Positions 2,197 through 56,558 of a stretch of 57,406 nucleotides of DNA are shown here, one piece after another. Under the pieces are notes generated by a model. That model saw only the letters and a program-made list of their open reading frames with translations. It did no database searches and had not been told where the DNA came from. The position numbers were made by a program, and so were the translations under genes. The stretch is from a virus (Duplodnaviria; Caudoviricetes), in IMG/VR virus record IMGVR_UViG_3300027668_000001, positions 1-57,406 of that record; one strand, given 5' to 3'. Every line of letters begins with the position of its first letter. The first letter of the stretch is position 1.

Positions 2197-2200
2197 AAGT

Positions 2201-2223
2201 AATCGACCCACAGGGGGTCAATT
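2201..2223 (+). promoter_or_regulatory. Conserved hairpin element (putative virion-RNAP promoter)
   Basis: AATCGACCC-ACAGG-GGGTCAATT, upstream of the SSB gene. Confidence 0.65.
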
Positions 2224-2267
2224 TAAAAAGAGGGATACTCTCTCATAACCCACGTAAAGGAAATATA

Positions 2268-2789
2268 ATGATTACTCTTTCTAAACCACGGAACTTCATG
2301 ATCACTAACGCCGAAGCCTATTACCCTAAGCTGGAAACACCTCAGATTGGTAAAGGCACAGTCAATGGTCGGCCTTTCACTACACCATTGCAGTTTGAAA
2401 TTCAGCTACGAGCTAAAGACGCAGCCACTCTACAGCTATGGAAAGATAACCATCTGCCTGTGAGAGAGAACAAAGACGGTGTGTCTAGCTTAACCATTCG
2501 ACGCCGTGCTCTAAAAGCAGATGGCAGCGACAATGGTAAGCCTCGTGTAGTTGGTAACGATAAGCAACCAATGGACGCTAAAATCATTGGCAATGGTTCA
2601 ACAGTTAATGTTATCGTATGGCAAGCGCCTTATGGTGACAATAACGAATCAATATTCAATTCTCTCACAGCTGTACAAGTGACTGAGCTTATTGAATACA
2701 GCGGCAGTGACATCGACTTTGATGTGCTTGGTGAAATGTCACCTACTGTTTCTGGTGAGAAAGATGAAGACTTAGAGGCAATGTTCTAA
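2268..2789 (+). CDS. Putative single-stranded DNA-binding protein (gp2.5-like)
   Basis: IGNGSTVNV and LTAVQV motifs; acidic C-terminal tail ending in F. Confidence 0.7.
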   Translation: MITLSKPRNFMITNAEAYYPKLETPQIGKGTVNGRPFTTPLQFEIQLRAKDAATLQLWKDNHLPVRENKDGVSSLTIRRRALKADGSDNGKPRVVGNDKQPMDAKIIGNGSTVNVIVWQAPYGDNNESIFNSLTAVQVTELIEYSGSDIDFDVLGEMSPTVSGEKDEDLEAMF

Positions 2790-2953
2790 TGTCAGTTTTC
2801 TTACTAGCATGTGCTAATCTCTATTTAGTTATGGTGTTTAGTATCGCAGCGGTGGAGATTACATCTGATGTGATCATCCACTTAGCTCCACAGGAATCAA
2901 TCGCTGTTGAAACTATAGACCCGATGAATCCTAATTCAATTCCAGATGCATAA
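2789..2953 (+). CDS. Small membrane protein (54 aa)
   Basis: TAATG coupling to the SSB stop; hydrophobic N-terminus MSVFLLACANLYLVMVFSIAAV. Confidence 0.5.
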   Translation: MSVFLLACANLYLVMVFSIAAVEITSDVIIHLAPQESIAVETIDPMNPNSIPDA

Positions 2954-2961
2954 CTCCAAGG

Positions 2962-2984
2962 AATCCGACCACAGGGGCCGGATT
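2962..2984 (+). promoter_or_regulatory. Conserved hairpin element (putative virion-RNAP promoter)
   Basis: AATCCGACC-ACAGG-GGCCGGATT followed by TAAAAAGA. Confidence 0.65.
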
Positions 2985-3117
2985 TAAAAAGATAATCCCT
3001 GTCCATAACTGGATATTTGCTTATAATCATAAAGATAGCTAATTAAGATTATCAAAACACCTAAGTATGTGTATAAACTACTTACATAATTCTAATACAA
3101 CACTAAGATGTGTTGTC

Positions 3118-3293
3118 TGTTCCAACTGTTGAGTTTGGGTTCTTTAATCCTTTCAAGCTCAAGCTCCGGTTGGAACAACTAATACAAGTGACTCCGATCC
3201 GAACTCCTTGCTGAAGTTCTCGTTGAAGTCCTTGTACCCCTGACTGTTGAGATTCAGTGACCCTTAAAGTCGCGCGGTGATCTCCAGTCAGGG
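3118..3293 (+). ncRNA. Candidate structured RNA with three consecutive long stem-loops
   Basis: Stems at 3118-3177, 3183-3236 and 3238-3293, with G-U pairs on the plus strand; no ORF. Confidence 0.5.
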
Positions 3294-3376
3294 TTCAAAG
3301 TTTTTAAATAGAATCCCTTACGGGATGCTGTTTTTAATAGGAGTCTCTAAAACCCAGAGGTTTTAAAGATTCCTAA

Positions 3377-3439
3377 GAGATCCTAATGGATCTCGTTTAG
3401 GATTCCTCCAGGAATCCTTAGTGACCCTAAGGGGTCACT
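3377..3439. repeat. Cluster of three short perfect inverted repeats
   Basis: GAGATCC/GGATCTC, AGGATTCCT/AGGAATCCT, AGTGACCC/GGGTCACT. Confidence 0.8.
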
Positions 3440-3587
3440 GTGATTTTTGGATGGTCCGACAAGACTTTTTCAAACAAGAGGCATTTAAAAATATCTATTT
3501 TATTCGGTGTGTGGATAGTTGGTTACATTACGGTTGCAACTACCAGAAAAACAACTTAACTAAAATTAGTCATGAAAGGCTATAACA

Positions 3588-3803
3588 ATGACAACAGTAA
3601 ATCCAATCGGTCGTAACAACTTGCAATTTCGTCGTGTAACAAAACGTTATGGTAAGCCAGTAGGTTCATTCTCAGGTCACCAAGGTTACCTCTCAGTAGC
3701 TCGTGATGTTGAGACAGGTCAGTTTGTGTCCCGTTCTAAACTATCAGAATCTACAATAGATCGTATTCGTAAAGTTATCAAAGTACGTGGCTTCAACAAA
3801 TAG
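3588..3803 (+). CDS. Small basic hypothetical protein
   Basis: 71 aa, R/K-rich, GAAAGG SD. Confidence 0.8.
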   Translation: MTTVNPIGRNNLQFRRVTKRYGKPVGSFSGHQGYLSVARDVETGQFVSRSKLSESTIDRIRKVIKVRGFNK

Positions 3804-3815
3804 GAGAATTAGAAA

Positions 3816-4001
3816 TTGGATAAAGCAAATATCTTTTGGACAGCAGAAGGGGAAGTGGTTATAGAAATTATGGAAAGAGCATTGATACTATCACGTGTAG
3901 AAGCAGAGGTACTGTTCACAGACCTAGGTCACACACTCAGAGATATGCACGACTGTATGGACAATAACGCAGAGGACACTGGTGAACAACCAGATGGCTG
4001 A
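3816..4001 (+). CDS. Hypothetical protein
   Basis: TTG start with AGGAG SD. Confidence 0.65.
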   Translation: MDKANIFWTAEGEVVIEIMERALILSRVEAEVLFTDLGHTLRDMHDCMDNNAEDTGEQPDG

Positions 4002-4239
4002 TATACTCCCATTCAAATTAAAACCAATCGGTCTTGATGGTGCAAAAATGAAAGAAGATACCTTCAGACGAGTAGATGAATTATTCAACATAACTATGTG
4101 GATAGGCACAGACGAACAATACGAGATAGACATGTTTAGCAACGAAGATTACTCTGATCAAGAAATCTTTGAAGGAATAGAATGTCTATATGCTAAATTC
4201 GGAATTGAACATGGGTTCTTTTCAGAAGAAGAAGACTAA
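3994..4239 (+). CDS. Acidic hypothetical protein
   Basis: ATG 3994 overlaps the end of the upstream gene. Confidence 0.7.
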   Translation: MADILPFKLKPIGLDGAKMKEDTFRRVDELFNITMWIGTDEQYEIDMFSNEDYSDQEIFEGIECLYAKFGIEHGFFSEEED

Positions 4240-4257
4240 CCTTAAAGGGGAAGAGTT

Positions 4258-4680
4258 ATGATCTCAGAAGTATATTATAATCTAAGAAAGAAACTCTTCT
4301 CCATTAAGCAGAAGGGTAAAGTAAAATACCACAACGATAACGTAGTAATATACAAGGCTAAATTTGTAGTGCAAAACGGTGGTAGGTTACGTGTGTTACG
4401 TACAAAACAGAAGAATGTCCATGCATTTGTTCGTGGACAATTCGTAGGTAATGTCTGTCTTGACTTTGATGGTGAAATGAAAAGGGCCTTCTATAATCCA
4501 TACATCTTAAAGCAATTCATAGAGTTTGATAGTTTATTAGAAGATGAACACAAACCTGTAGTGGAAGCAGAATACGCATGGTTAACAATGAATGAAGGTT
4601 ATCCTGTAATAAAATACATCCCATATGAAAGCAAAGCACATGACAAAACCAGCAGTACACATCTCAATAATGACAGGTAA
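4258..4680 (+). CDS. Conserved phage hypothetical protein
   Basis: VYYNL...KNVHAFVRG...YNPY motif pattern. Confidence 0.8.
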   Translation: MISEVYYNLRKKLFSIKQKGKVKYHNDNVVIYKAKFVVQNGGRLRVLRTKQKNVHAFVRGQFVGNVCLDFDGEMKRAFYNPYILKQFIEFDSLLEDEHKPVVEAEYAWLTMNEGYPVIKYIPYESKAHDKTSSTHLNNDR

Positions 4681-5269
4681 ACTCCAAGGTCTAAAAGCAA
4701 TCAGTACAAACACCAAGACAAATGAGTACTGCATAGATCAACACAAGAAAGCCATAGACAATAAGACAGATAATATATGCGGAGATTGTTACAGCCACAA
4801 AATGCTAGATGGTTTCCGTAAGAACATGGCACCTGCCCTTCAAAGAAACAGTGACATCCTATCATCAAGACCATTAGAACCACATGAGATACCAAGGATT
4901 ATAGACAGCATCTTCAGATTCAATGCGCATGGTGAGATAATAAACATGCAACACTTAGATAATCTGATGCGTATAGTTCTAGATAATCCTTGGTGTCGCT
5001 TTGCCTTGTGGACTAAACGAACAGACTTTGTATTCCGCTGGATGAAAACATATGGTAAACCAAAGAACCTAAATCTAATCTATAGTAACCCTAAGAAAAG
5101 TATGATTATGTCAAAGCCTCCTAGGTACTTTGATAAAACATTCAACAATGTCTTAACCGATGAGTTCACAGAGCGACAGAACTGCACTGGTCAAAAGTGT
5201 CAAGACTGTCGTTTATGCTATGAAATCAATGATGTAGATACAATTGTAGAAAAAGTAAAGAAATACTAA
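4625..5269 (+). CDS. Cys-rich GP88-like protein
   Basis: CxxCY, FRFNAHGE, LWTK and C-terminal CxxxxCxxCxxC motifs. Confidence 0.6.
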   Translation: MKAKHMTKPAVHISIMTGKLQGLKAISTNTKTNEYCIDQHKKAIDNKTDNICGDCYSHKMLDGFRKNMAPALQRNSDILSSRPLEPHEIPRIIDSIFRFNAHGEIINMQHLDNLMRIVLDNPWCRFALWTKRTDFVFRWMKTYGKPKNLNLIYSNPKKSMIMSKPPRYFDKTFNNVLTDEFTERQNCTGQKCQDCRLCYEINDVDTIVEKVKKY

Positions 5270-5550
5270 TGGAAAATAAAATAGACAACTCAGATGTAAT
5301 AGCACTAGCTGCTGAAATTACAGAATACATAGTTTACGAACTGGTGTATGGTGGACCAATAAAAATTCAAGAAGAGAATGGTGATGAACGTTATACAGAC
5401 GAAGCACAAGAAGTATTCAATGATCACTATGGTGAAATAAAAGACATTATAGAGAAAGGGCTAGGACTGTCAGAACCAGAGAAACCAGAGCAAGAATCTA
5501 TACAAGATCTTCTTAATAAATTAACCTTAAAAAACTACTTAAAGGGATAA
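5269..5550 (+). CDS. Acidic hypothetical protein
   Basis: 93-aa ORF, translationally coupled. Confidence 0.75.
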   Translation: MENKIDNSDVIALAAEITEYIVYELVYGGPIKIQEENGDERYTDEAQEVFNDHYGEIKDIIEKGLGLSEPEKPEQESIQDLLNKLTLKNYLKG

Positions 5551-5552
5551 CC

Positions 5553-5867
5553 ATGACAATCTATATGAATCAATACCAAGATAAAGCTAAAGAAACTGCA
5601 ATTTTCCCACAAAGACAAGGGATTACCTACTTGGCATTAGGTTTATGTGGAGAAGCTGGGGAAGTTGCAAATAAAATAAAGAAATGTATACGTGATGGTG
5701 CATCATATGATGGCATTGCAGCAGAACTCGGAGATGTACTCTGGTATGTCGCAGTACTTGCAGAATACCTCGGAGAAGACCTAAACACAATTGCAGCAGG
5801 TAACCTTAAGAAACTAAGTGACCGTGCCTCTAAGGGTACTCTACAGGGCTCAGGTGATAACAGATGA
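5553..5867 (+). CDS. mazG: MazG-like nucleotide pyrophosphohydrolase
   Basis: LGLCGEAGEVANKIKK...ELGDVLWY...GSGDNR. Confidence 0.9.
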   Translation: MTIYMNQYQDKAKETAIFPQRQGITYLALGLCGEAGEVANKIKKCIRDGASYDGIAAELGDVLWYVAVLAEYLGEDLNTIAAGNLKKLSDRASKGTLQGSGDNR

Positions 5868-5926
5868 TGCTACTAGCCTTTCTGGCCTGCATCCTCATAG
5901 TTCTCATGGCAGCAATGATGAAATGA
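5864..5926 (+). CDS. 20-aa hydrophobic peptide (MMLLAFLACILIVLMAAMMK)
   Basis: ATGA overlaps with both mazG and the methyltransferase. Confidence 0.5.
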   Translation: MMLLAFLACILIVLMAAMMK

Positions 5927-6654
5927 CTAAAAACATTGTAATAAGTTTGTACGACTTCACAGGTGAAGCACTCAAACCTTGGGCAGCAGCAGGTTACACT
6001 TGCTATGCCTTCGATATACAGCATGACCCACATGAAACAACAACTAGATATTCTCAGATTAATGCTAAAGGTTCTATTGAGTACGTACACGCTGATCTAC
6101 ATAACCCTGAAACCTTAAACAATATTCAAAACTATTTTGTCTACGAGAATGTAGTATTCGGCATGGCCTTCCCAGTATGCACTGACATGGCTGTATCTGG
6201 TGCGGCTCACTTCAAGCGTAAGGCAGAGGCAAACCCAAACTTTCAGATTGAGGCAGTAAGTCATGCCAAGGAATGTGCCAAGTTATTTAACAGTATGCGT
6301 ATTCCATACTTTATAGAAAACCCTGTCAGTGTACTGGCAACCAAATGGCGTAAGCCTGACTATAGATTTCATCCTTACGAGTATGGTGGATACATACCTG
6401 ACAATCAAGCAGAGCACCCACGCTGGCCTGAATACATAGCAGCCAAAGATGCGTATCATAAAAAGACATGCCTGTGGACAGGAGGAGACTTCATTATGCC
6501 TCCAACTTTACCAGTAGAACCTGAGGAAGGACACAGCAGACAGCACAGGAAGCTGGGTGGTAAGTCACAACGTACCAAAGATATACGCTCAGCCACACCA
6601 CGTGGCTTTGCTATAGCAATCTATGAGATAAATAGAGAGGACTGGTGTACATAA
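5923..6654 (+). CDS. DNA cytosine methyltransferase (phage Dcm-like)
   Basis: ISLYD/AFDI SAM-binding region, FPVCT catalytic motif, IENP motif and RSATP tail. Confidence 0.75.
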   Translation: MTKNIVISLYDFTGEALKPWAAAGYTCYAFDIQHDPHETTTRYSQINAKGSIEYVHADLHNPETLNNIQNYFVYENVVFGMAFPVCTDMAVSGAAHFKRKAEANPNFQIEAVSHAKECAKLFNSMRIPYFIENPVSVLATKWRKPDYRFHPYEYGGYIPDNQAEHPRWPEYIAAKDAYHKKTCLWTGGDFIMPPTLPVEPEEGHSRQHRKLGGKSQRTKDIRSATPRGFAIAIYEINREDWCT

Positions 6655-6656
6655 TA

Positions 6657-6902
6657 ATGCCATTCACAATAGAGGAAAAACCTTGGACCACTGAGATAGT
6701 TATCATGGATGATTCAGGAGATGATATTGACCTCGCAATAATCATAGAAAACGTAGGGGAATACGAAGGCTATGTATCTATGAGACAATTCAATGAAGAC
6801 ATAGGATGTTATGATGTAATAACCATGTCACCCTTAATGTTCAAAGATCTTATGAAATCCTTTGATTCCCCAGAGGGTTTCCACGGACTTCTATGGAAAT
6901 AA
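6657..6902 (+). CDS. Acidic hypothetical protein
   Basis: ORF immediately before the terminator. Confidence 0.7.
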   Translation: MPFTIEEKPWTTEIVIMDDSGDDIDLAIIIENVGEYEGYVSMRQFNEDIGCYDVITMSPLMFKDLMKSFDSPEGFHGLLWK

Positions 6903-6954
6903 AAAAAAGAACCCAGAGACTCTCACAGAGAATCTTTGGGTTCTTATAATTTTT
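6901..6954. terminator. Bidirectional intrinsic terminator
   Basis: AAGAACCCAGAGA...TCTTTGGGTTCTT stem with an A-run on the left and T-rich sequence on the right, between convergent genes. Confidence 0.8.
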
Positions 6955-6958
6955 CAAT

Positions 6959-7008
6959 AACCGACAAGCCGCACTAACTTGTTTTTTTGTAAACCGACAA
7001 GCCGCACT
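6959..7008 (+). repeat. 17-bp direct repeat AACCGACAAGCCGCACT x2
   Basis: Copies at 6959-6975 and 6992-7008, each followed by a T-rich run. Confidence 0.9.
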
Positions 7009-7037
7009 GGCATTTTCTTTCAGGTTCTATCAGAACC

Positions 7038-7430
7038 TCACACTATCCTAAGTGCTCGTATCTTGCTGTCGAGTTCTTCATCAGATAAACTCTCAGCGCC
7101 TATCTCCTCAATCTGAAGCTCCCTACGCTGTAGCTTAGGCTGCTCATACTCTGCAATCTTTGATGCAAGATCACTAGCAGTATCAAAGTCTTCTTTGTCT
7201 AAAGATTTAAACATAAGTATCTTTAAGACATCTAGAGAGTTCATATCGATATGGTCTAGTACATCTTCTTTGTACTGACGCCAATCTTTCATGCTCATCT
7301 TTAAGGCTTCTCTAGCATCTCTTGCTGCTTTACGAGAAGCTGCTGATTTCAATTGCATCTCCTTAGCATTTTCTTTAGTGAATGAAGGTGCTAAATTTTT
7401 AAGGCTGTTTGGATGAACCTCTCTAGTCAT
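7038..7430 (-). CDS. Putative terminase small subunit / DNA-packaging protein
   Basis: HPNSLKNL N-terminal motif; helical; has its own late-type promoter; no terS next to terL. Confidence 0.5.
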   Translation of the reverse strand: MTREVHPNSLKNLAPSFTKENAKEMQLKSAASRKAARDAREALKMSMKDWRQYKEDVLDHIDMNSLDVLKILMFKSLDKEDFDTASDLASKIAEYEQPKLQRRELQIEEIGAESLSDEELDSKIRALRIV

Positions 7431-7457
7431 AGTAATTACCTCTTATTATACTTTATT

Positions 7458-7480
7458 AATCCGACCACGGGGGTCGGATT
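7458..7480 (+). promoter_or_regulatory. Conserved hairpin element (putative virion-RNAP promoter) heading the replication operon
   Basis: AATCCGACC-ACGGG-GGTCGGATT, perfect 9-bp stem. Confidence 0.65.
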
Positions 7481-7504
7481 TTAGAAGAGGAATAACTCTC
7501 TTCT

Positions 7505-7518
7505 CTATAAGGAACTTA
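7505..7518 (-). promoter_or_regulatory. Late phage-RNAP promoter TAAGTTCCTTATAG
   Basis: Exact 14-mer shared with four other intergenic sites; upstream of 7038..7430. Confidence 0.8.
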
Positions 7519-7533
7519 AAGAAAGGGCATAAA

Positions 7534-16663: not shown

Positions 16664-16712
16664 AAAAAGCCCCCAAGAAAACCTTAATGGTTCTCTTGGG
16701 GGCTTTATTTTT
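16664..16712. terminator. Bidirectional intrinsic terminator between the two genome arms
   Basis: AAAGCCCCCAAGA/TCTTGGGGGCTTT stem flanked by A and T runs. Confidence 0.9.
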
Positions 16713-20220: not shown

Positions 20221-23200
20221 CTAATTCTCCTTGTTGTCCTTATAGTTCCAACCACCACCAGTCATTAGACTAGCTAGTCTTTTATTAGTATCTGTAAAAG
20301 GTCCAATTCCAGGGGCTGATTTTAAACCCTGATATAAAGAACGTTCAAAGTCACCCTTAGCTGCATTCAAAGTTGCATCACCGAGCCTACCAACGTACCC
20401 AACAGTTGGGCTTTCACCTGTGGCTTGATTGTATAACCAACCACCAAGACCCTCAGAGCGTTGACCATAGATAGGTGCAAAGATATCAACAATCCTTTCA
20501 CCTGTGCCAAGCAAACCAGAAGACATGACACCACGGCGAATGTACTCAGGTGTGTCCAAGTATGGATTACCAAGTGTACCTTCGTCATCATCATCGTCAT
20601 CAAACTTTATCTCATCTTTCATAGCCTGTGAGAAGAACCCTAAGGCAATCATAGTAGACATGAGAACAAAGGTGTTGTACTTCATTGCTGGAGTGCCACG
20701 TTTGATATAGTCATTCCACATACGAGGTATATGGTTTGCTGTAAAGGTAGAAATGAAACCTTGGAACTGTGTAAACAAAGCAAACCTTGGATCTTGATAG
20801 AGCAAAGGACGATTAGCTGCACTTGGAAGGGCTACTGCTTGGTTAATAAAGTTGTAGGTAGCTTCCTTCATTGTTTGATTCCATGCATCCATCTCTTTAG
20901 CACTTAAAGGTAATCCTTTTTCAATAGCATTCATCATAGGAATGAATTGTTCTATAGGTATTCCCAAGCTTCTTAGCTTTTGCTCAGCCTCTTGGGCCTC
21001 ACGAGTAGGGCCTTGAGATACAATCTCCCCATCCTTAGTGACATACTCTGTTACAGTAGTTTTCTTCTTAGTCTTTTTATCAACAGTAGTAGTTGTTCTT
21101 GCCTCGTTCCTTTGATATAATATTTTAGAGTTAATAGATATAAAATCATAGGCCATACTTGCACGAACAGCACGAGTATAGTCAGTCCATTGAGTCAAAC
21201 CAATAGCCCTAAAGAAAGCTTCCATAACATTCTTACGATTGTCTGAAACCTCACTGACACCTGTGGTTGTTGCAGCGCCTACTTCCCAAGCATAGAAACC
21301 AGTTTCTCTAAGAAGCTTTTGACCTTCACTACCATTGTTCTGTTGAAGTATACCTTCATCAGTGCTGGATTCAACCTTCTTTAGATTAGGCAATAACCCC
21401 GCCACTGCTTCTTGAGCAATGTTCCTAATGCTTCCATTCTTACCAAAGATTTGTTCCTTAGTGAGCGCCCCTTGTGTCATAGCCATTTCAGGCAGTGAGG
21501 AAAATGTTGCAAGTGGAAGTGCGGATAGTGTCATCCAGAACATTACATTCTTCTGGAACCTCATAAGCTTTTTACCAGCTTGGGTAGTCGGCCTGTTGTA
21601 GTTACCTGACACAGCCTCTAAGATATTCTTAACCTCAGAAGCTACACGATTAACCTCTTCCTCAGGCACACCCTCGGCCTGCATCTTGTTCAAGAGTTTA
21701 GATATAATCTCTCCATCCTTACCAACATACTTCATTTGAGTTACGTAACGAGCCGCAGTCTTACTTGCATTAGCAACGTTAGCGAAGATGTCTTTCTCAT
21801 AGAACTGATCAAACTTTTCATTCTGAGATAGACCAAACTTCCTACGCTTGTGTGATGGTGGGTTGAGAGATCCTACATTACTGATAATAGCATCCGCAGA
21901 GTCCAGATCGTAGACGTTTGGGTTGTCTCTGATCTCATCTGTAATCCTTAAAGCTAGGTCAGGAGTGATTCCATACTCAGATATTAAAAGATTTTTAAAC
22001 TTCTCTGGATCCTTAGACACAGCAGCCTTATCAATTGACTTGTACTTAAGGAGGTAACCTTTAATATCTCCCAAATCAGCACCAGCATCTAATTGGTTTT
22101 GACGGAGTTCCTTACCAAGAGTCATCAATTGATTACCCAAGTCAATAATTACCTGCCTGTTCTCAGTGTCCTTTGGTACAAGATTCTGATTAAAGTTACC
22201 TCGTTTATCGATAGCTCCCCTCAACACTTTGTAAGTCATGTCACTTACCCTAGCTCTATCAGAAGACTTAAACACTCCTGCAATAGATCGAAGACCCAAT
22301 CTCTTATAGTAAGCTTTTGGGTCATGCACTTGGTTCTTGTAGTAAGTTACAAGATGGTGTTGTGCAGCTTCGATACCAGAACCACCATGTAAAGGAGTCA
22401 GTGTCCCACCTAAGATAGATGCCAATGCACGAGCAGACCTAGACTTATCTAGTGTAGCTTTTGGAATTGCATTTGTAACAGCAGCTTGCCAAAGATTAGA
22501 AACATTCATTACAGATGTAGATGCACGTTCCATAAATGTTTTCTGACCAGTTGTTTGCTTGTGCTTATCTCCTCTTTGATTAACGTTGGGACCGAGGTTG
22601 TCAGAGGCATCCACTTCTTTCTGAACATCTGACAGTAGTTGGGGTGTAGTTCTTACAGTCCCACCGTGATTTGCCTTCTCTTCTTCTATGTATCTTTCAT
22701 TGTCTGATTGAGATATTGGTTCTCCAAAACGAGCAGCTGCATCCATCCAAGTTATCTGATCTTTAACTGTACCGGGAATAGAAAAGGCACCACCTAAGGC
22801 AGTGCCAGCAATAGCAGCATTAGCTAAACGTTCTTTAAACTCTTCGTAGTCAAACACTTTATCTGAACCTTGAACAGCAGCAAGATAGCCAATAGCTTCT
22901 TGACCAACTTCAGTCAGTCCCTCAGATACAGAACCAACACCTACAGTTCCTAAAGCTCTCATAGAAGCCTGCTTAGCTGTTATCTGAGCCTTTGCAATCC
23001 TCTGTGCTTCATTGGCAAACTGACCAATGGCAGAGTCTGCTTCTGCTTTAACAAGTATCTTAGCATCTAGTAAACTTATTCCACGAGATTTAGCAAGTGC
23101 CTTTGGTATCTCTTCTCGTATAGTTTGTATTGGGTTTTTTCCTATACCTCCAATACCTTTAAGACCTAACCTATCAAGGACAGCTTGAGCTATGCCAGAA

Positions 23201-24309
23201 CCAATTGCAATGGTAGCTGACTTACTATCGTTATCACCTTCCATGTCATTCCAAGTTTGACCTGCATACATGAATGATGGGATAGCTACAGCACCTGAGA
23301 CAGCAAGAGCAGTACCTATAACAGGGGCAAGTACAGTTCCAGCAAGAGCCGAACCAGCAGTGATTGCCATATAAGGAAGAGACAAAGCCATTGTGTTCCC
23401 AAGGTACTCAATGAAACCTCCAATGTTATCAATATCTTTGTAGTTGTTAGTCGTATATCCAAACTCAGCCAGCTTACCTTGCTGCCTACGTACACCAGCT
23501 TCACCCCATCTTTCAAGACCCTCAGCTCCAGTAGAAGAACCAAACAGATTAGCAATACCATACGCACTCTCACCTACACTGATCCACCCTTGTTCCCAAG
23601 AGTCGCTGATAGGGTTGAGAGATTTGTTGTCAAGTGAGACACCAGGTCTTCGGATATCTACATCACGATAAAAATACTTATTCATTTCGCTTGTAGCTTG
23701 ATCCCTAGACATTCCTTGGGTCATGAAGTAACTGATGTAAGAAGCTCTTTCTTTTTCATCTACAAGGGTTTGTTTAAAGCCTAAAGACTTGGCACCTTGA
23801 GATCTCTCAGCAATCTCAATATCAACTGCAGCTTTATCAAATGCAGAAGGTTCGTATGTACCCTCGAAAATAGCCCTGTCCCTAGCAGCTGTTGTGGCTG
23901 TCTTTTGAATCCTATCAGAGTCTGTTGAGTACTCTGTTAGATCCATTGCACCTGAACTCATTAACATGCCTGAGAAAGTTTCCCCAACATCATTGACAAG
24001 ATCAACCATCTGACGAGTACCACCAGAATCCATCATAGGGGAACCGTCTGAATTGAACACAGGTTTTATGTTATTAAACCCCTGTTCATTAGCTAGTCGG
24101 GAGATAATGCCAGTGGTTTCTTTACCACCAGCAGTACCTTCCTTAACTTCCCCAGTGTATAAGATCTTAGACACCTCGGCAGCATCATAACCACGAAGAC
24201 GATAGTTGGGACCATCTGGGTTATCCAATGTGTCACCATCGATGAAGTGAGTACCAGTACCTGCTAAAGTATTAGGCTTAAAGTTACTAATATCATCTAA
24301 TATTCCCAT
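20221..24309 (-). CDS. Large internal virion (ejection) protein with N-terminal thermonuclease-like motif
   Basis: IDGDT and RLRGYDAAE at the N-terminus; hydrophobic Ala/Gly segment; gene position. Confidence 0.7.
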   Translation of the reverse strand: MGILDDISNFKPNTLAGTGTHFIDGDTLDNPDGPNYRLRGYDAAEVSKILYTGEVKEGTAGGKETTGIISRLANEQGFNNIKPVFNSDGSPMMDSGGTRQMVDLVNDVGETFSGMLMSSGAMDLTEYSTDSDRIQKTATTAARDRAIFEGTYEPSAFDKAAVDIEIAERSQGAKSLGFKQTLVDEKERASYISYFMTQGMSRDQATSEMNKYFYRDVDIRRPGVSLDNKSLNPISDSWEQGWISVGESAYGIANLFGSSTGAEGLERWGEAGVRRQQGKLAEFGYTTNNYKDIDNIGGFIEYLGNTMALSLPYMAITAGSALAGTVLAPVIGTALAVSGAVAIPSFMYAGQTWNDMEGDNDSKSATIAIGSGIAQAVLDRLGLKGIGGIGKNPIQTIREEIPKALAKSRGISLLDAKILVKAEADSAIGQFANEAQRIAKAQITAKQASMRALGTVGVGSVSEGLTEVGQEAIGYLAAVQGSDKVFDYEEFKERLANAAIAGTALGGAFSIPGTVKDQITWMDAAARFGEPISQSDNERYIEEEKANHGGTVRTTPQLLSDVQKEVDASDNLGPNVNQRGDKHKQTTGQKTFMERASTSVMNVSNLWQAAVTNAIPKATLDKSRSARALASILGGTLTPLHGGSGIEAAQHHLVTYYKNQVHDPKAYYKRLGLRSIAGVFKSSDRARVSDMTYKVLRGAIDKRGNFNQNLVPKDTENRQVIIDLGNQLMTLGKELRQNQLDAGADLGDIKGYLLKYKSIDKAAVSKDPEKFKNLLISEYGITPDLALRITDEIRDNPNVYDLDSADAIISNVGSLNPPSHKRRKFGLSQNEKFDQFYEKDIFANVANASKTAARYVTQMKYVGKDGEIISKLLNKMQAEGVPEEEVNRVASEVKNILEAVSGNYNRPTTQAGKKLMRFQKNVMFWMTLSALPLATFSSLPEMAMTQGALTKEQIFGKNGSIRNIAQEAVAGLLPNLKKVESSTDEGILQQNNGSEGQKLLRETGFYAWEVGAATTTGVSEVSDNRKNVMEAFFRAIGLTQWTDYTRAVRASMAYDFISINSKILYQRNEARTTTTVDKKTKKKTTVTEYVTKDGEIVSQGPTREAQEAEQKLRSLGIPIEQFIPMMNAIEKGLPLSAKEMDAWNQTMKEATYNFINQAVALPSAANRPLLYQDPRFALFTQFQGFISTFTANHIPRMWNDYIKRGTPAMKYNTFVLMSTMIALGFFSQAMKDEIKFDDDDDDEGTLGNPYLDTPEYIRRGVMSSGLLGTGERIVDIFAPIYGQRSEGLGGWLYNQATGESPTVGYVGRLGDATLNAAKGDFERSLYQGLKSAPGIGPFTDTNKRLASLMTGGGWNYKDNKEN

Positions 24310-24330
24310 TACATATCTCCTTGTGTTAAA

Positions 24331-27300
24331 TTATGCTATTAGTCCATTCACCATACTCTTCATGACATACTGCATTAACCCACTTACACCAATAGCAGCA
24401 CCTGTGTCAATGTGGCCTTGCCTTAATTCAGGGTCTAGATCTCGCCAATCGTTGTAAGTATCTGTAGTCATTAGCCAAGATGAAACCTGAGTATCATTCA
24501 TGCCAGCTAATTCTTCTTGACCTTCACGAGCTGCCGCATCCTTAAGAGTCTTTATGAAAGTTGTAATATTTGCTATAGGAACTGGTTTATCAAAAGTAAC
24601 CTTACCCTCACTATTCTTTGAAGGTAAGAAGAAGTTTTGTGCATCAGTAGTATTAGATTCTACCCAAGCTCTTGAGAAATAGTTACTTAATCCAGAGATT
24701 TTCTTACCAGACTTAGTATCAATCAATGCTTCATTGTAAGCCTTTTCTACAAGCTCTTCCATCTGCTCTAGTTCCATACCATTCTCAATAGCAAACACAA
24801 CAGCTTCCCTTCCAATTTTTGCTTTTGGAATGCCCAGATATGATTGACCAGTCACAATAGCACCAGCACTGTCTCTCTTTGGATTATTAGTATCTAGTTG
24901 TCCTACAAACGTTGATATCTTATCTCTTATCGATTTCTTGTATGTCTGATTGGCTTGTGTATTAGGGGCAAACCTACCATCGTTGGTAAGTGTACTTAGA
25001 TTAACCTGCTTATTGCCATCAAACCAATAATTACCATCACCTACTTTTTTTTGAATTAAAGTAATTTCCCTACCTGTTCGCCTATCATACATGGTCATTG
25101 GCTGAGCACTAGTGGGAACGGCAGGGAGACCTTTAGTTACAAGATCACCAAAGTCCATTGATTTCTTAAATATTGCAAGACTTTCCTTAGTATGTGTATC
25201 TGCAATAGCAACCTTATTATAGGTACTTTCCTTAGCATCTACCCTAGCAATGTAGTTCTTACCTGCAAAGGCAAGAGCTTGATTACCACTAAGACCAGTA
25301 GCACGACCACCAAGGTACATAACAGCAGCCCTAGCAAGTTCTTTACTGTCAAACAGATTCCCAAAGACACCTTTGAGCATAGCCATAGCACCTGTTACTT
25401 CAGGATTTTTAACTTTGTCAGCTAATAATTTAGCAGCAGCCGCTTCAGCAGCCGCTTTTTCTGCTGGAGTTAATACAGGATTTTCTTTTTCTAAGTTTGT
25501 AACAATGTTTTCAACATCAGCTATAGGGTTTTTAACAGTAGTTTCTACAGTTGTATTATCAGCAGGGTTGACATAAGGTACGATATTATCACGTTCCTGT
25601 TCTATCCTAATAACATCAGAGTTCTTCCTAGTTAGTTGCATCTCAGCTCTTTTTTCAGCCTCTTGCGCCTTTGCAAGTTCCAACTTATTAGCTTCAGCTT
25701 GAGCTTTAGCATCTGCCAGTTGTTGAATTGCCTGCTGACTTCCAGGGTTTAATCTTATGTACTCTTCAAGATTTGTAATGACGTTTAGAGTAGTTTCCAA
25801 AGTATCTCTCGCAGAGTAAACCTGCTTTTCTACTATATCAAGAGGGCCTCGTTCAAGAGTCTCTCGCATAATACGGTCCATGTAGAGATTGTCTCCACCT
25901 GTACTCATATCACTCTGGTCAGTCGCAGCTTCAATTTCGTTTAACCGGATTTGATTAATTGCTTGATCATCCCCGTCAGTAGCAAGACGTTCTAATTCAG
26001 TTCTAGTCATACTCTTATAGTTCTTATTCACTACAGGGGGTATGTCATTATCCAAACTAGGAATATTTTCTCTAGTTTCTTGGTACAGAGTGCCGTAGTT
26101 TGGAGGGATATTGTAACCAGTCAACTCCTCTAAGCTTGTCATTGATGGTGTAAATGCCCCTGAAATAAGATTAGATACCTTGCTGTGTTCAGGTGATCCA
26201 ACCTCTAGCCTTTCACGAAGATCCATTAATCTTTTCTGTGCTTCAGACCTACGATATTTATCTGGGTCATTACCAATGAAGTCATTACCAATGACATTAC
26301 CACCCATAGGTATATTATTACCCATCATCCTAGGAACATCTTGAATAGATGCTGGAAGGTTGTAACTCATCAACTCATCTAGGCTTATCATCGATGGGCT
26401 TAATGCCTTTGTAATAATATCAGATATCTTGATGTGTTCAGGTGATCCAACAGGTAAACTTTCACGCAGATCCATTAACCTTTGTTGTTCTACAGTCCTA
26501 CGAGAAATAGCATCACCAGTCTGACCATACCCTGAAGCACCTAAAGTACCAAATCCTGTCTCCCTAGGATCACTAATCACTTGTCTATCCTGACCATTAG
26601 TGAAGATATTACCTTGACCAAATGTCTCATTACCTAAGCCTGAGCCCGGTCTTGGTACACTGTAATTCAATTGCTTGAATGGAAATTCCTTCCTAGCCTC
26701 TTCAACACTATCAGAAGATCCTTCAAGTAATGATTGATCACTGTTAGGGATTGGGAGGTATGAGAGGTCTGGTGGAGGTGTGTTCATCCATTCAGGTCCA
26801 GCCACTGGAGGAGAGTTGGGGATTGGGAGATATGAGAGGTCTAATGGAGGTGCAACAACTGGCTCCGGAGGGGCTTGCCTCTGAGGCATCTTATCAATTA
26901 GAAGTTGCGATTGATCAAACTTAGTAAGAGCATCACGCTCATTCCTTTTAAACCAAGCGTTATCAACATCCTCTTGAAGATTACGCCGAGCCATTTGATC
27001 TATAGATAACCCGCCTGTATTTAAGTGGATAGGGCCACCCATATTTTTCTCGTCAGTATAACCAGCAGTATAACCACTACTAGGAAAGTTAGAGATACCT
27101 CCCGCTCCCATGTCTGAAAGCCTTGGACTATCTTGTACCCCTCTAGGAGTAGGTACACCAATAAACCTTGGATCAGGAACACTTACCTGATTTGCAATCA
27201 TTACATTCGGATCAAGTCCAGCATACATGTCTTGAGATGGCATCATCTGATTATCACGAGCTGCATTAGCAAGTTCCTGTTCTATCCTAATAACATCAGA

Positions 27301-28362
27301 GTTTTGAGGTTGGGGAGGTGCTGCTTGCATCTGTGGTATTAAATTAGGTGCCATACCAGTCTGGCCATACCCTGAAGAGCCTCCAAGTTCCCTCTGATCA
27401 TAGTTCTGTTGTGGTTCAGGAGAGGTTGGACGTGACTGTGGACGTAATGATGTGTCAGGGGCCATTGGACGTGACTGTGGACGTAGTGATGTGTCAGGTG
27501 CTGCAAGAGGTGGGGTGACAGGTGCCTCAGGTTGTTGAGTCTCCGGACGTGACTGTGGACGGGGTGATGTGTTAACGGTAGCTTGGTTTAAAAGTTCTCT
27601 CTTTGGATTTGGATCTCCAGAAAGTTCATGGTACCTATTTATCCAACCCGCACCATGTTTATCCCAAGTATCAAATGTTTCAAACTTATCTAAGAGTTTG
27701 TTTTTAAAATCTATAGGAGAAAAAGAGTGATTCAAAGGTAGATCATCTGAATATTTATTAATATATCCCATAGTCGTTGGTCCCATAATACCATCTACTT
27801 GGTCTGAGGGCATACCTAACATTTCTTGCATGATCTTTAAACCATGACCACCACTATTAAATATAGAATGGAAATAAATTTCTTGCAATTCTGGAGGAAC
27901 TTTAGCTACCTGATATTTATCATAGTAGTTTTTTACTAAGATCCCTTTAGCCTGTTCCTTAGTAAGTGCTTTCATATCAGCTGCGGTTGGGGTTCTTCCT
28001 AAATAAATTTTAAGTTCTGGAGCAGCAATTCCAAAGTTAGTACCTACAAAAGGTTCGTTGCCTAACTTACCTGCCTTACCATTTGTATAGTTACCATTGT
28101 CATTTACGTCTTTAGAGTAACCAGCTTCTGCTTTAAACACTGACGAAATAAGATCTTCTTTACTTTTAGCAGTACCACCATCATTGTAATGTTGAATACT
28201 ACCACCCATGTTTTTCATTGCACGATGCTGTAAACCTGCGCTATTCATCTGCTCTATCACAGGAGCAAACATAGTTGATGCTTCCTTATTGAGGACAAAT
28301 TCTCCGGGTGTTAGCATCGCAGGTACAGTATCCCGATTAGTCGGATCTGTTTTATCAATCAT
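24331..28362 (-). CDS. Internal virion protein with GH108-like peptidoglycan hydrolase domain
   Basis: DTVPAMLTPGEFV; EAGYSKDVND...TNFGI; VDGIMGPTT; GWINR; start at 28362 has an AGGAG SD. Confidence 0.75.
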   Translation of the reverse strand: MIDKTDPTNRDTVPAMLTPGEFVLNKEASTMFAPVIEQMNSAGLQHRAMKNMGGSIQHYNDGGTAKSKEDLISSVFKAEAGYSKDVNDNGNYTNGKAGKLGNEPFVGTNFGIAAPELKIYLGRTPTAADMKALTKEQAKGILVKNYYDKYQVAKVPPELQEIYFHSIFNSGGHGLKIMQEMLGMPSDQVDGIMGPTTMGYINKYSDDLPLNHSFSPIDFKNKLLDKFETFDTWDKHGAGWINRYHELSGDPNPKRELLNQATVNTSPRPQSRPETQQPEAPVTPPLAAPDTSLRPQSRPMAPDTSLRPQSRPTSPEPQQNYDQRELGGSSGYGQTGMAPNLIPQMQAAPPQPQNSDVIRIEQELANAARDNQMMPSQDMYAGLDPNVMIANQVSVPDPRFIGVPTPRGVQDSPRLSDMGAGGISNFPSSGYTAGYTDEKNMGGPIHLNTGGLSIDQMARRNLQEDVDNAWFKRNERDALTKFDQSQLLIDKMPQRQAPPEPVVAPPLDLSYLPIPNSPPVAGPEWMNTPPPDLSYLPIPNSDQSLLEGSSDSVEEARKEFPFKQLNYSVPRPGSGLGNETFGQGNIFTNGQDRQVISDPRETGFGTLGASGYGQTGDAISRRTVEQQRLMDLRESLPVGSPEHIKISDIITKALSPSMISLDELMSYNLPASIQDVPRMMGNNIPMGGNVIGNDFIGNDPDKYRRSEAQKRLMDLRERLEVGSPEHSKVSNLISGAFTPSMTSLEELTGYNIPPNYGTLYQETRENIPSLDNDIPPVVNKNYKSMTRTELERLATDGDDQAINQIRLNEIEAATDQSDMSTGGDNLYMDRIMRETLERGPLDIVEKQVYSARDTLETTLNVITNLEEYIRLNPGSQQAIQQLADAKAQAEANKLELAKAQEAEKRAEMQLTRKNSDVIRIEQERDNIVPYVNPADNTTVETTVKNPIADVENIVTNLEKENPVLTPAEKAAAEAAAAKLLADKVKNPEVTGAMAMLKGVFGNLFDSKELARAAVMYLGGRATGLSGNQALAFAGKNYIARVDAKESTYNKVAIADTHTKESLAIFKKSMDFGDLVTKGLPAVPTSAQPMTMYDRRTGREITLIQKKVGDGNYWFDGNKQVNLSTLTNDGRFAPNTQANQTYKKSIRDKISTFVGQLDTNNPKRDSAGAIVTGQSYLGIPKAKIGREAVVFAIENGMELEQMEELVEKAYNEALIDTKSGKKISGLSNYFSRAWVESNTTDAQNFFLPSKNSEGKVTFDKPVPIANITTFIKTLKDAAAREGQEELAGMNDTQVSSWLMTTDTYNDWRDLDPELRQGHIDTGAAIGVSGLMQYVMKSMVNGLIA

Positions 28363-28381
28363 ATCATTCTCCTGATAGTGG

Positions 28382-29734
28382 TTACTTCTTTTGTTTTGGA
28401 TAAGGGACTTTACCCCCTTTGTTAAATACTCCAAAGAGTTTTCCTAACCCAAGACCAATGCCTACAGGTCCAAGAGCTGCCATCATAGCAGAGCCTCCTG
28501 CAGCTGCGGTGGCAGCAGTTCCAGCCGCTGCGTTACCTCCCATCATAGTTCCCAGAGAACCCATGAGACCTTTTTTAGCTGCGAGAGCACCAAGACCATT
28601 AGAGATCCCATTATTAACAGCACCCATAGCAACCTCTTCACCAATACCACTTAAAGGTCCAGCTTGTTGAGGGGCAATCTCAGCTTGCATCATTTGACGT
28701 TGACGTATCTCGTCTTCACGAAGACCAGTGTTAGCTACTGAAATACCACCTGTGTTGTAACCTATAGGGCCTCCCATGTTACGTGCTGGTGGGTTGTTAC
28801 CAATATTATTATAACTAACCTTACCACCTGTATTTCCAACAGTACCATACCAACCAGCTGAGGCATTATAATCTTTATTATTAGCATGGTGAGCGTTTGC
28901 CATCATTGACGCCATGTGAAGATCTTGGTCTTTATCATTATTGTGATATCCAAGAGTCGGAGTTGGATCGTAGGTGCTTATAGGTGCTGTTGCTAGGTTA
29001 GATGCTACAGTTGCTCCAGGAATTAATTTAAGAATGGGGGCTTTATTAACGGCATTTTTTATCCCACTAGTAATACCTCCATAGATATCCTTAACACCTC
29101 CAAAGAATCCAGTAGTAGGATCATTTGCATTGTAACCACCACTTACATTTTTAAAACCTGCTGAAGCCATAGATGCTGCAGCATATTCTTCTGGTGTCAT
29201 AGTCTTCTTATCTTCAGCGGTGGGTGCAGGATTAGCTGCAGCCAGATCCGCATTGTAACCTGGATTTTCTGTTACATCAATCGTAGAAATAGTCCCATCT
29301 GGATTAACCTTACCATACACGGATTCTGAACCAAACGTTGCAAAAGCATTATTTACATTTTCATGTGCTACATCCTTATGACCACCATAAGTAGTATAAT
29401 TACCCCCACCAGAACTACCAGCCAAAGGGGCTATGTTAGCTGTGTTCATTTCGTCTGCCTTTTTAAGACTAGCTGCTTGAACTTCAGAGGATAGACCAGA
29501 GGCTGCTAATGCTTGCCGTAATTTACGGCGAGAGTCTGCAAGTGTGTGGTAATCAGGGACACCGGATGCATTACTACCAGCTCCATAACTCAATGGACCA
29601 GAAGTGTTACCGCTTGAATTACCACTCAAGTAGTTCTGAATAGCTGGTGCTGCATAACCCCCCTGAGGTATCCCAGTGTTGACTGCAGGTTGAACTACAC
29701 CACCTTCTTGATACTTTTGAATTATATGTTTCAT
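28382..29734 (-). CDS. Putative internal virion protein (Gly/Ala/Asn-rich)
   Basis: 450 aa; gene position; recurring [YF]xxGG motifs. Confidence 0.65.
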   Translation of the reverse strand: MKHIIQKYQEGGVVQPAVNTGIPQGGYAAPAIQNYLSGNSSGNTSGPLSYGAGSNASGVPDYHTLADSRRKLRQALAASGLSSEVQAASLKKADEMNTANIAPLAGSSGGGNYTTYGGHKDVAHENVNNAFATFGSESVYGKVNPDGTISTIDVTENPGYNADLAAANPAPTAEDKKTMTPEEYAAASMASAGFKNVSGGYNANDPTTGFFGGVKDIYGGITSGIKNAVNKAPILKLIPGATVASNLATAPISTYDPTPTLGYHNNDKDQDLHMASMMANAHHANNKDYNASAGWYGTVGNTGGKVSYNNIGNNPPARNMGGPIGYNTGGISVANTGLREDEIRQRQMMQAEIAPQQAGPLSGIGEEVAMGAVNNGISNGLGALAAKKGLMGSLGTMMGGNAAAGTAATAAAGGSAMMAALGPVGIGLGLGKLFGVFNKGGKVPYPKQKK

Positions 29735-35635: not shown

Positions 35636-35655
35636 CTATAAGGAACTTAGAGAAT
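35636..35655 (-). promoter_or_regulatory. Late phage-RNAP promoter upstream of nrdJ
   Basis: ATTCTCTAAGTTCCTTATAGGGGGG on the minus strand. Confidence 0.8.
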
Positions 35656-54137: not shown

Positions 54138-54157
54138 CTATAAGGAACTTAGAGAAT
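54138..54157 (-). promoter_or_regulatory. Late phage-RNAP promoter for the structural operon
   Basis: ATTCTCTAAGTTCCTTATAGAG on the minus strand. Confidence 0.8.
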
Positions 54158-55944: not shown

Positions 55945-55958
55945 CTATAAGGAACTTA
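55945..55958 (-). promoter_or_regulatory. Late phage-RNAP promoter upstream of terL
   Basis: TCTAAGTTCCTTATAGA on the minus strand. Confidence 0.8.
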
Positions 55959-56318
55959 GACAATCTGTAGTTATATTGTAGTATATTTTAGGATTCTGTG
56001 TGTATCTGTACAGATTGGAGTACCCCCTAGGTGCTTTGAGGTACATTGAGTGGCTTAGAGAGAGCCTGTAAGTATTGTTTTTATATTAAGTACCCTCATA
56101 TATCTCACAGTACCCCCTCAATCTCTCTAAGGTATCCCTGATGGGGATGGAGTCTCTGAGAGCCCTCAAGGGGTCTCTCATAGCCTCTAAGGTTCTCTCA
56201 GGTACTGTGAGGTACTCTGAGGTATCATAGCTCTGTGAGGTTCTCTGGTGGCATAGGCACTAGCGGGAGGATCGATGTACTGTGAGAACTTCGAGAGACT
56301 GTGGGGCAATGGCATCCT

Positions 56319-56343
56319 ATTCTCTAAGTTCCTTATAGGGAGA
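56319..56343 (+). promoter_or_regulatory. Late-type phage promoter in the non-coding end region
   Basis: ATTCTCTAAGTTCCTTATAGGGAGA; the 3' end TATAGGGAGA is identical to the T7 class III initiation region. Confidence 0.8.
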
Positions 56344-56529: not shown

Positions 56530-56552
56530 AATCAGTCCACAGGGGCCTGATT
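56530..56552 (+). promoter_or_regulatory. Conserved hairpin element (putative first virion-RNAP promoter)
   Basis: AATCAGTCC-ACAGG-GGCCTGATT upstream of the first early gene. Confidence 0.6.
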
Positions 56553-56558
56553 TGCAGA

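Follow-up and report, generated by a model that had tools for sequence, protein, structure and literature searches.

The 57,406-nucleotide (nt) virus genome IMGVR_UViG_3300027668_000001, a complete record with a direct terminal repeat of 127 bp and 41.6% G+C that was analysed over its whole length (the window), raises the question of how its early and middle genes, among them the gene for the phage's own T7-like RNA polymerase (RNAP), come to be transcribed. Four similar hairpins head the plus-strand gene units, and it was originally predicted that they are promoters of a new class, folded in the template strand and recognized by an RNAP carried in the virion. A promoter role for these hairpins is well supported by their context and is, in our judgement, probable, whereas the virion RNAP is a plausible candidate for their reader. 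The explanation that we favor, tentatively and with a little less than even confidence, is that the hairpins act as N4-style promoters of the early and middle genes and that their most likely reader is a virion-delivered single-subunit RNAP of 1167 amino acids (aa).

A conserved and covarying hairpin element

The element spans 31 nt. A 9-bp stem with a 5-nt loop is followed by a T and by four or five bases rich in A/T, and the G at position +7 after the hairpin is nearly invariant. The pattern AATnnnnCC-ACRGG-GGnnnnATT recurs at all four of the positions originally reported (Table 1), always on the plus strand and with no mismatch to AATNNNNCCACRGGGGNNNNATT, and a search of both strands of the window that allowed up to two mismatches found no match beyond these four. 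Among 100 dinucleotide shuffles the mean number of pattern matches was 0.17 and the maximum 2, none reaching four, and a backwards-pattern control in the window gave 0 matches. The stem middles (CGAC/GTCA, CCGA/TCGG and CAGT/CCTG) and the three mismatches (C.A at 2201, A.C at 2962 and T.C at 56530) are as first described. The positions of the open reading frames (ORFs) also bear out the intergenic placement, with site 1 starting 5 nt past the stop of ORF 2023-2196, site 2 starting 9 nt past the stop of ORF 2789-2953, site 3 lying between the divergent starts 7430(-) and 7534(+), and site 4 lying upstream of every plus-strand gene. A covariance model built from the four window sites and four orthologues, run against the window with filters off, returned only the four sites, at 47.9-56.2 bits; the next-best match, at 17.2 bits, was the reverse strand of site 3.

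Pairing was assessed in an alignment of 17 distinct 23-mers, the rows of which were pre-selected for at least seven Watson-Crick pairs out of nine. The outer pairs (A/G-A-T with A-T-T/C), the two loop-closing C-G pairs and the loop AC(A/G)GG are fixed, the core CC-ACRGG-GG being invariant across the distinct members. In total, 92.8% of the stem cells pair, and sliding the partners destroys the pairing. Compensatory variation, which had been claimed from the four sites of the window, is seen on both sides of five of the nine pairs (the four inner ones and the outermost), and the covariation score of 0.361, compared with 0.138+-0.022 in shuffles, was reached by none of 500 shuffled alignments. 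An unselected scan of IMG/VR for the pattern gave a bimodal result: three or four of the four free pairs were complementary in 86 of 141 matches and none to two in the other 55. Thirty-two of the 36 unique well-paired contexts have the same downstream motif, and the remaining four look like chance. When the commonest stem was held fixed and the loop left free, ACRGG was found in 38 of 44 occurrences, one-base variants in five and an unrelated loop in one; the loop is thus no artefact of the search pattern. As judged from these comparisons, both the structure of the stem and the sequence of the loop are under selection.

The conservation extends 8 nt past the hairpin. Among 48 unique contexts of the family, T occupies position +1 in 45, A position +6 in 45, G position +7 in 44 and A position +8 in 42. 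The T and purine-rich stretch originally noted downstream thus turns out to be a fixed motif. In most of 42 contexts, the hairpin is followed at a distance of 4-9 nt by a second stem-loop, which is variable in sequence and resembles the 5'-terminal stem-loops of phage mRNAs.

The window phage is a CRP-7-like marine podophage and no schitovirus. Roseobacter phage CRP-7 is its nearest isolate by protein, with the same architecture and an RNAP of 35% identity; megablast of the window against the phage collection found no close record at the DNA level. IMG/VR contains many relatives, with RNAPs approximately 93%, 87% or 56% identical. The covariance search in related genomes that had been named as a check gave exactly four strong sites in each of three related complete genomes (G001, G002 and G003), all on the early strand and with a spacing that matches the window, and site 3 is present in nine of nine close-clade loci with at least 7 kb of upstream sequence. 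There was no match to the model in two more distant relatives, G004 and G005, or in 41 sources of the clade with 56% RNAP identity plus CRP-7, and a de novo hairpin and k-mer search in the distant clade recovered only other, lineage-specific repeats. Separately, G004 (locus L106) has three copies of the tandem repeat GACACCTACAT in its early region at ~21630-21700, and G005 (locus L117; ~10190-10360 and 11540-11670) has two repeats of ~27 nt as well as two copies of a ~26-nt repeat with a CACAC/GTGTG stem ahead of the gene for the single-stranded DNA-binding protein (SSB). The tandem repeats of these hairpin-less genomes could be lineage-specific early signals.

Genomic context of the probable promoters and the strand that folds

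The genome is divided into rightward genes at 1-16659 and 56530-57406 and leftward genes at 16715-55927. The rightward block begins with small early ORFs and genes for a Gp2.5-like SSB, MazG, a methyltransferase and a nucleotide kinase, and continues with ThyX, DNA polymerase, exonuclease, primase-helicase and a T7-like RNAP of 764 aa; terminase, portal, capsid and tail proteins and three giant proteins make up the leftward block. Hairpin 4 heads the earliest plus-strand region, the conserved G of hairpin element 1 precedes the ATG of the SSB gene by 38 nt, and hairpin 3 heads the unit 7534-16659, which extends from the nucleotide kinase gene through ThyX and the replication genes to the 764-aa RNAP. 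A strong intrinsic terminator (z = -5.3 for the region) parts this last unit from upstream plus-strand transcription. Because hairpin 3 follows both that terminator and a gene on the opposite strand, the 9-kb replication and RNAP unit needs a promoter of its own, and hairpin 3 is the only conserved rightward element at that place. In G004 and G005 the place of hairpin 3 and the place ahead of the SSB gene are held by T7-like promoters of the same direction; from this comparison of genomes, one of the two promoter types appears to have replaced the other in evolution. The proposal that the hairpins are promoters is supported by this context, by their number, strand and position, which are conserved in four genomes, and by the covariation, the constrained loop and the fixed G.

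Which strand adopts the hairpin can be approached through the mismatches. Seven of the 11 unpaired cells in the 17-member alignment are C.A or A.C, that is, G.T on the minus strand, and the other four are pyrimidine-pyrimidine, all at stem position 7 in the first element of each genome. G.T on the plus strand occurs in none of 142 paired cells, and the wobble-compatible mismatches all favor the template strand. The C.A and A.C cases trace back to about six distinct sites or lineages (sign test, approximately 1 in 30-60), and the bias is suggestive rather than strong. Folding with DNA parameters gave, for minus versus plus, -5.6 vs -4.5, -6.7 vs -5.2 and -5.8 vs -3.6 at three window sites and -8.9 vs -9.1 at site 7458. 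With RNA parameters, the minus strand is better in four of 15 distinct members and the plus strand in 11, an advantage that is mostly 0.6 kcal and pertains to perfect stems, and this counts against template-strand folding. The original statement that the fold is better on the template strand thus holds for the asymmetry of mismatch types and for three of the four window sites but does not extend to a general energy advantage. RNA of minus-strand sequence is unlikely to cover the sites, since the only leftward promoter near them, at 7520, precedes the terminator 6907-6954. Given this and the mismatch bias, a hairpin in template-strand DNA would be the simplest reading of that bias.

Table 1. 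Features of the window relevant to the hairpin elements and their possible readers
Feature	Position	Strand	Remarks
Hairpin element 1	2201..2231	+	Hairpin 2201-2223, then TAAAAAGA; conserved G at 2230
Hairpin element 2	2962..2992	+	Hairpin 2962-2984, then TAAAAAGA; conserved G at 2991
Hairpin element 3	7458..7488	+	Perfect 9-bp stem 7458-7480, then TTAGAAGA; conserved G at 7487
Hairpin element 4	56530..56560	+	Hairpin 56530-56552 with T.C mismatch at stem position 7, then TGCAGAGG; conserved G (+7) at 56559
T7-like promoter	56323..56338	+	TCTAAGTTCCTTATAG, then GGAGAAG; sole plus-strand copy, 207 nt upstream of hairpin 4
T7-like promoter	7505..7520	-	1 mismatch; points left into TerS-like ORF
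T7-like promoter	35636..35651	-	Heads late (structural) unit
T7-like promoter	54138..54153	-	Heads late unit
T7-like promoter	55945..55960	-	Directly upstream of large terminase gene
Intrinsic terminator, strong, bidirectional	6907..6954		A-run, long stem, T-run; between ORF 6645-6902(+) and TerS-like ORF(-)
Terminator, bidirectional	16666..16706		Convergent junction of plus and minus gene blocks
TerS-like late ORF, 130 aa	7038..7430	-	Inside early/middle region; conserved in G001-G005
Canonical T7-like single-subunit RNAP, 764 aa	14103..16397	+	PF00940, 2.5e-54; T7 RNAP, 1.6e-27
Divergent RNAP-like protein, 1167 aa	16715..20218	-	Last gene of late operon; separate gene
Two giant virion/ejection-type proteins	20221..28434	-	1362 aa (phrog_6958, virion structural protein) and 1367 aa (GH108 muramidase domain); adjoin RNAP-like gene
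Large terminase gene	54275-55927	-	

Two polymerases and the possible readers of the hairpin

A second motif, TCTAAGTTCCTTATAG followed by G or A, is common to the late-strand intergenic regions and had been overlooked in the original prediction. With up to one mismatch it occurs five times, against 0.92 expected; four copies point leftward, ahead of the terminase gene, two late units and the TerS-like ORF, and one points rightward at 56323. The motif ends in TATAG, and we call it T7-type on the basis of its resemblance to the T7 promoter consensus; the placement of the rightward copy is also reminiscent of T7 phiOL. G001-G003 have the same five promoters at the same places, G004 and G005 have versions of their own (GTATAAGTCCCTTTAG and TATATACCCCTTATAG), and in each of the four hairpin-bearing genomes the first hairpin is preceded, at a distance of 144-225 nt, by a T7-like promoter. 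This class fits the 764-aa enzyme, the gene for which is the final large one in the hairpin-3 unit and had likewise gone unrecognized. We also note that the predicted rightward start of hairpin 3 (7487) and the leftward start of the TerS-like gene (7505) cross, such that the 5' ends of the two RNAs would overlap in antisense for ~19 nt. G004 keeps this crossing at its TerS-like gene with two T7-like promoters, and G005 shows the same arrangement.

The other candidate reader is the 1167-aa protein encoded at the end of the late operon, which the original prediction took to be an RNAP. Its family comprises 141 proteins by word search, none of the 120 listed having a Pfam domain, and 404 representatives at 50% clustering with E up to 0.001; Pfam searches with eight distant members matched RNA_pol (PF00940) in none, and tblastn against 50,697 phage records found no relative. 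Neighbors of the protein in the ESM Atlas carry PF00940 (scores 0.95 and 0.94). In a 39-sequence alignment of the family, R499 (QGFQGR), D680 (YMDGKTNG), K762, Y770, G771 and D974 (IYDAF) are invariant. We assign them, in sequence order, to the T/DxxGR motif and then to motifs A, B and C of T7 RNAP, and these residues align to the motifs of a T7-like profile and to motif A of the N4 mini-vRNAP, derived from the N4 virion RNAP (vRNAP).

Statistical support came from hhalign with an 81-sequence profile of the family, used in local and global modes with reversed profiles as controls. Against a 24-sequence T7-like profile the E-values were 4.4e-4 (local) and 6e-7 (global), with the motifs aligned, compared with 0.31 and 0.51 for the same profile reversed. 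Against a 10-sequence N4 mini-vRNAP profile the local E-value was 3.9e-5 over motif A, where DGKTNGP aligned to DGVTNGP, and the reversed profile gave 0.72 (local) and 0.55 (global). Two further control families scored 0.47 and 0.51 (DNA polymerase) and 0.35 and 0.99 (primase-helicase). For scale, the known relationship between the 764-aa family and the N4 vRNAP gives only 0.0075. Comparisons with the single T7 and N4 sequences were not significant (E of 0.12 and 0.05), and a first run with a 39-sequence profile gave an E-value of 0.06, support being obtained only with the 81-sequence profile. From the profile comparisons with their controls and from the catalytic motifs we conclude that the 1167-aa protein is, as far as its sequence can tell, a remote homologue of single-subunit RNAPs with its catalytic residues intact, in agreement with the original prediction.

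The model that we tentatively favor combines these observations as follows. The four elements would constitute a second, hairpin-dependent promoter class for the early and middle plus-strand units, in which the stem ends (AAT/ATT and CC/GG) and the loop are fixed, the four middle pairs need only pair, and a 6-nt A/T-rich spacer leads to the conserved G as the probable start site. The minus strand, which serves as template, would fold in underwound or melted DNA, in the manner of N4 early promoters, and a phage single-subunit RNAP would bind the folded strand. Judging from the placement of its gene, the 1167-aa RNAP may be made late, packaged with the two giant ejection proteins and injected. 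Its targets after injection would be the early genes, the SSB gene and the replication operon with the 764-aa RNAP gene, whose product would go on to transcribe the late genes from the T7-like promoters. Some polymerase must be present at the start of infection, because the 764-aa gene lies behind hairpin 3 and the terminator, a need that an injected RNAP would meet, and since the 764-aa enzyme has a distinct T7-like class, the hairpin class is left for another reader. The coexistence of two motif classes and two polymerases suggests one class for each.

Several points weigh against this model, in addition to the RNA-parameter energies given above and the geometry discussed below. The pre-selection of the covariation alignment favors the result obtained from it. 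The RNAP homology of the 1167-aa protein is at a remote level only: the protein matches 0 families in Pfam (also with E up to 10), PHROGs and NCBIfam, phmmer and hmmsearch comparisons with the PDB returned no RNAP, and the global-mode hhalign comparison with the N4 vRNAP is not significant (0.58). An RNAP and its promoter usually co-evolve, yet the hairpin is constant beside a variable 1167-aa gene. By blastp, the window protein is 84, 42, 44, 40 and 33-34% identical to its counterparts in G001, G002, G003, G004 and G005, respectively, those of G002 and G003 are 37% identical to each other, and at least seven lineages of the gene (35-63%) are found in backbones with a 764-aa RNAP of 86-94% identity and an unchanged hairpin. 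G004 and G005, for their part, keep a homologue of the 1167-aa protein without a detectable hairpin. The T7-like RNAP, DNA polymerase and terminase of loci L007-L086 are 86-97% identical despite this hypervariability. Residues ~124-425 of the 1167-aa protein are somewhat better kept among the hairpin-bearing genomes than in comparison with G004 and G005, an effect inseparable from plain relatedness. The neighbors of the gene also diverge fast in G002 and G003, the 1362-aa protein being 56-58% and the 1367-aa protein 34-38% identical.

Two ways out of the variability can be envisaged. Recognition may be by shape and a few bases, with the loop conserved partly for extrusion, in line with the part of the N4 literature reporting that the loop is needed for hairpin extrusion (PMC4496689); or else the hairpin may have a reader that is conserved together with the early module. 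In the isolate CRP-7, gp33 (L001 17859-21566, minus strand), at the position of the 1167-aa gene, has a weak collinear similarity (E of 0.023) and no catalytic motif patterns, and the portion of the CRP-7 paper at hand describes one RNAP only, ORF30 (PMC6918029). CRP-7 may thus be without a second polymerase and perhaps no usable model for it. Our search of the literature, which covered texts apart from supplementary files, found no account of a second RNAP or of hairpin promoters in CRP-7-type phages.

The main rival is that the hairpin promoters are read by the 764-aa T7-like RNAP, alone or with a single-strand-binding cofactor from the early module, the 1167-aa enzyme being otherwise engaged. 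The hairpin is invariant where the 764-aa RNAP is conserved (86-94%) and absent where that RNAP falls to 56%, although such a correlation with the early module is expected anyway, the hairpins being inside it. The T7-like promoters that drive the same units in G004 and G005 would be served by the 764-aa homologue, and there is a precedent in LUZ7, whose T7-like RNAPII uses GC-rich hairpin middle promoters according to the available part of its description (PMC9163698). On the other hand, the T7-like duplex promoter of the genome is unlike the hairpin upstream of -5, which makes one specificity loop for both improbable, and an enzyme whose gene sits in the hairpin-3 unit behind a strong terminator could not start its own synthesis unless another polymerase were present. 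We therefore regard this alternative as unlikely, but as one to be taken seriously.

Less probable still is a role in RNA, with the hairpins acting as processing, stabilizing or attenuating stem-loops in long plus-strand transcripts from the 56323 promoter or from host promoters. The T7-like promoter upstream of the first hairpin in four genomes could place the hairpins within plus-strand RNA, sites 1 and 2 come directly after stop codons, and the early mRNAs of T7 are cut at intergenic hairpins. An RNA-library contig (2135-2291) runs across hairpin 1, in keeping with read-through or DNA carry-over; the three RNA runs, with 6-9% of sampled words and sparse, patchy assembled contigs, provide evidence neither way. 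The mismatches argue against this role, none of the 11 being G.U on the plus strand and the seven C.A or A.C cases weakening a plus-strand RNA. The stem is also too short for RNase III, which needs about two helical turns, and no U-run follows the hairpins. A terminator scan of positions 1-17000 flagged none of the three in-range hairpins on the plus strand and site 1 on the minus strand only. Hairpin 3 in particular lies behind a strong terminator, and G004 and G005 have a promoter at the corresponding place. Rfam, finally, has no match for the hairpins.

Slightly more improbable again, in our view, is that the hairpins switch the early and middle units as operators, bound in duplex form by a dimeric regulator, or as sites at which host RNAP is activated. 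A 23-bp near-palindrome with fixed outer and inner bases upstream of genes would suit this reading, as would a reader whose specificity is conserved along with the early module and the use of host RNAP for early genes by many T7-like phages. However, operator half-sites need no compensatory changes, yet five of nine pairs covary. The asymmetric loop is conserved in a single orientation, the spacer and G occur on one side only, and the types of mismatch differ between the strands. Sigma-70-like sites are not enriched (40 vs 46.1 expected), none lying consistently beside the hairpins. One sigma-70-like match (9/12) at 7424-7452 was discounted, as it shares positions with the ribosome site and the start codon of the TerS-like gene.

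Other early-region features and comparison with known systems

The early region contains further structured elements. A second hairpin class, with loop (C/T)GTAATG and covarying stems, occurs on the plus strand at 66-92, 513-539 and 56911-56937 of the window, in G002 near 41440 and in CRP-7 (L001) at 329-351 and 1130-1152; these hairpins have G.T wobbles on the plus strand, and each lies ~30 nt ahead of an early ORF. A palindrome around the Shine-Dalgarno sequence (TATATC-nn-GAAAGG-ATATA, then ATG), found at 106-124, 553-571 and 56959-56977, is common to early ORFs of the window phage, G001 and CRP-7 and could be a translational operator or a stem-loop presenting the Shine-Dalgarno sequence. 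Hairpin 2 is followed by ~600 nt without a convincing ORF (2985-3585), with many local stem-loops, a terminator-like hairpin at 3419-3450 and no match in Rfam, which may be a non-coding RNA unit; scans of the window for Rfam families and tRNAs each gave 0 matches. Hairpin 4 is flanked, downstream of the 56323 promoter, by five tandem 10-11-nt repeats ending in TCTCAG or TATCAG and by a CT-rich array (56400-56450 and 56570-56650). This arrangement resembles the left end of T7, with its repeat arrays and phiOL promoter, an analogy by which the region may be an origin or packaging region.

DNA-hairpin promoters have so far been a hallmark of N4-like phages. If our proposal is correct, the same logic, with a different geometry, is used in unrelated and abundant marine phages and would represent a recurrent solution and not a one-family oddity. 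The 1167-aa family, with its 404 clusters at 50% identity and no name in the standard libraries, looks like a new branch of single-subunit RNAPs. If its members are injected, all phage genes would be transcribed without the host RNA polymerase, and synthetic biology would gain a useful orthogonal tool in a compact polymerase able to initiate on short single-stranded hairpin templates. The fixed promoter beside a hypervariable polymerase gene also raises a testable question about recognition. Extending the model to widespread marine podophages outside the Schitoviridae, one can envisage a cascade free of host RNAP, in which an injected minimal RNAP of the 1167-aa type, approximately one-third as large as that of N4, acts at template-strand hairpins of new geometry and is succeeded by the T7-like RNAP at the duplex promoters of the late genes. 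In such a cascade the injected enzyme would diversify as fast as a tail fibre while the promoter stays fixed, so that recognition would be led mainly by DNA shape and a few bases. This joint picture is possible but, on balance, doubtful.

Among known elements, intrinsic terminators are similar in that a stem-loop directly follows the stop codons at sites 1 and 2; they differ in that the stem here is followed by only 3-4 T, encloses a loop of fixed sequence and has mismatches by which plus-strand RNA would be weakened, and in that no plus-strand gene lies upstream of site 4; the window's real terminators (6907-6954 and 16666-16706) are unlike the hairpins. The duplex promoters of T7, T3 and SP6 share with the element an A/T-rich stretch followed by a purine-rich start with G, a length of ~23-31 nt, few copies and a strict orientation. 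Promoters of the T7 type, however, need no base pairing and have one conserved sequence of 17-23 bp in common within a phage, and TCTAAGTTCCTTATAG has nothing in common with the hairpin upstream of the A/T stretch.

The middle promoters of LUZ7, which combine a GC-rich hairpin with a small T7-like RNAP, come closer and constitute the precedent for a 764-aa reader. In the part of the LUZ7 report that deals with them, stems measure 6 bp or more and loops 3-4 nt, the hairpins are located ~15 bp upstream of a G start, and RNAPII appears to use them together with the cofactor Drc (PMC9163698). As described there, RNAPII of LUZ7 forms a heterodimer. The 764-aa enzyme of the window phage, by contrast, consists of one chain, and duplex promoters that match it are already present in the genome.

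The most extensive resemblance is to the early promoters of N4 and the Schitoviridae. Both are short inverted repeats around a GC-rich core centered on the loop, have variable stem positions that need only pair, and occur in few copies near the early-gene end of the genome; the active form is on the template strand in N4 and, judging from the mismatch bias, may be so here, and an A/T spacer would act as the ruler to a G start (template C). The putative reader, like the N4 vRNAP, would be a very divergent T7-type RNAP encoded last in a late operon beside ejection proteins, and the N4 vRNAP gene (gp50) has the same operon position as the 1167-aa gene. The candidate reader here is a separate 1167-aa protein, whereas the N4 vRNAP is the center of a ~3500-aa protein that is present in virions and has N- and C-terminal domains for ejection and packaging, and the late genes, transcribed by host RNAP in N4, would here be transcribed by the T7-like RNAP. 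The geometry counts against a strict equivalence: the N4 hairpin has a 3-nt loop and, in the partial accounts available for this type, a stem of 4-7 bp, compared with 5 nt and 9 bp here, and in the same accounts the start G lies 11 nt from the loop center in N4 and 13-14 nt in LUZ7, compared with 18 nt for the conserved G here. Promoters of the N4 type also depend on supercoiling and SSB and are read by an injected RNAP. As far as the description in PMC4496689 goes, some stem bases of N4 early promoters are conserved and others vary, the hairpin is active on the template strand, and an A-tract serves as ruler to the G start. The element of the window would thus work like an N4 early promoter yet departs from the N4 geometry.

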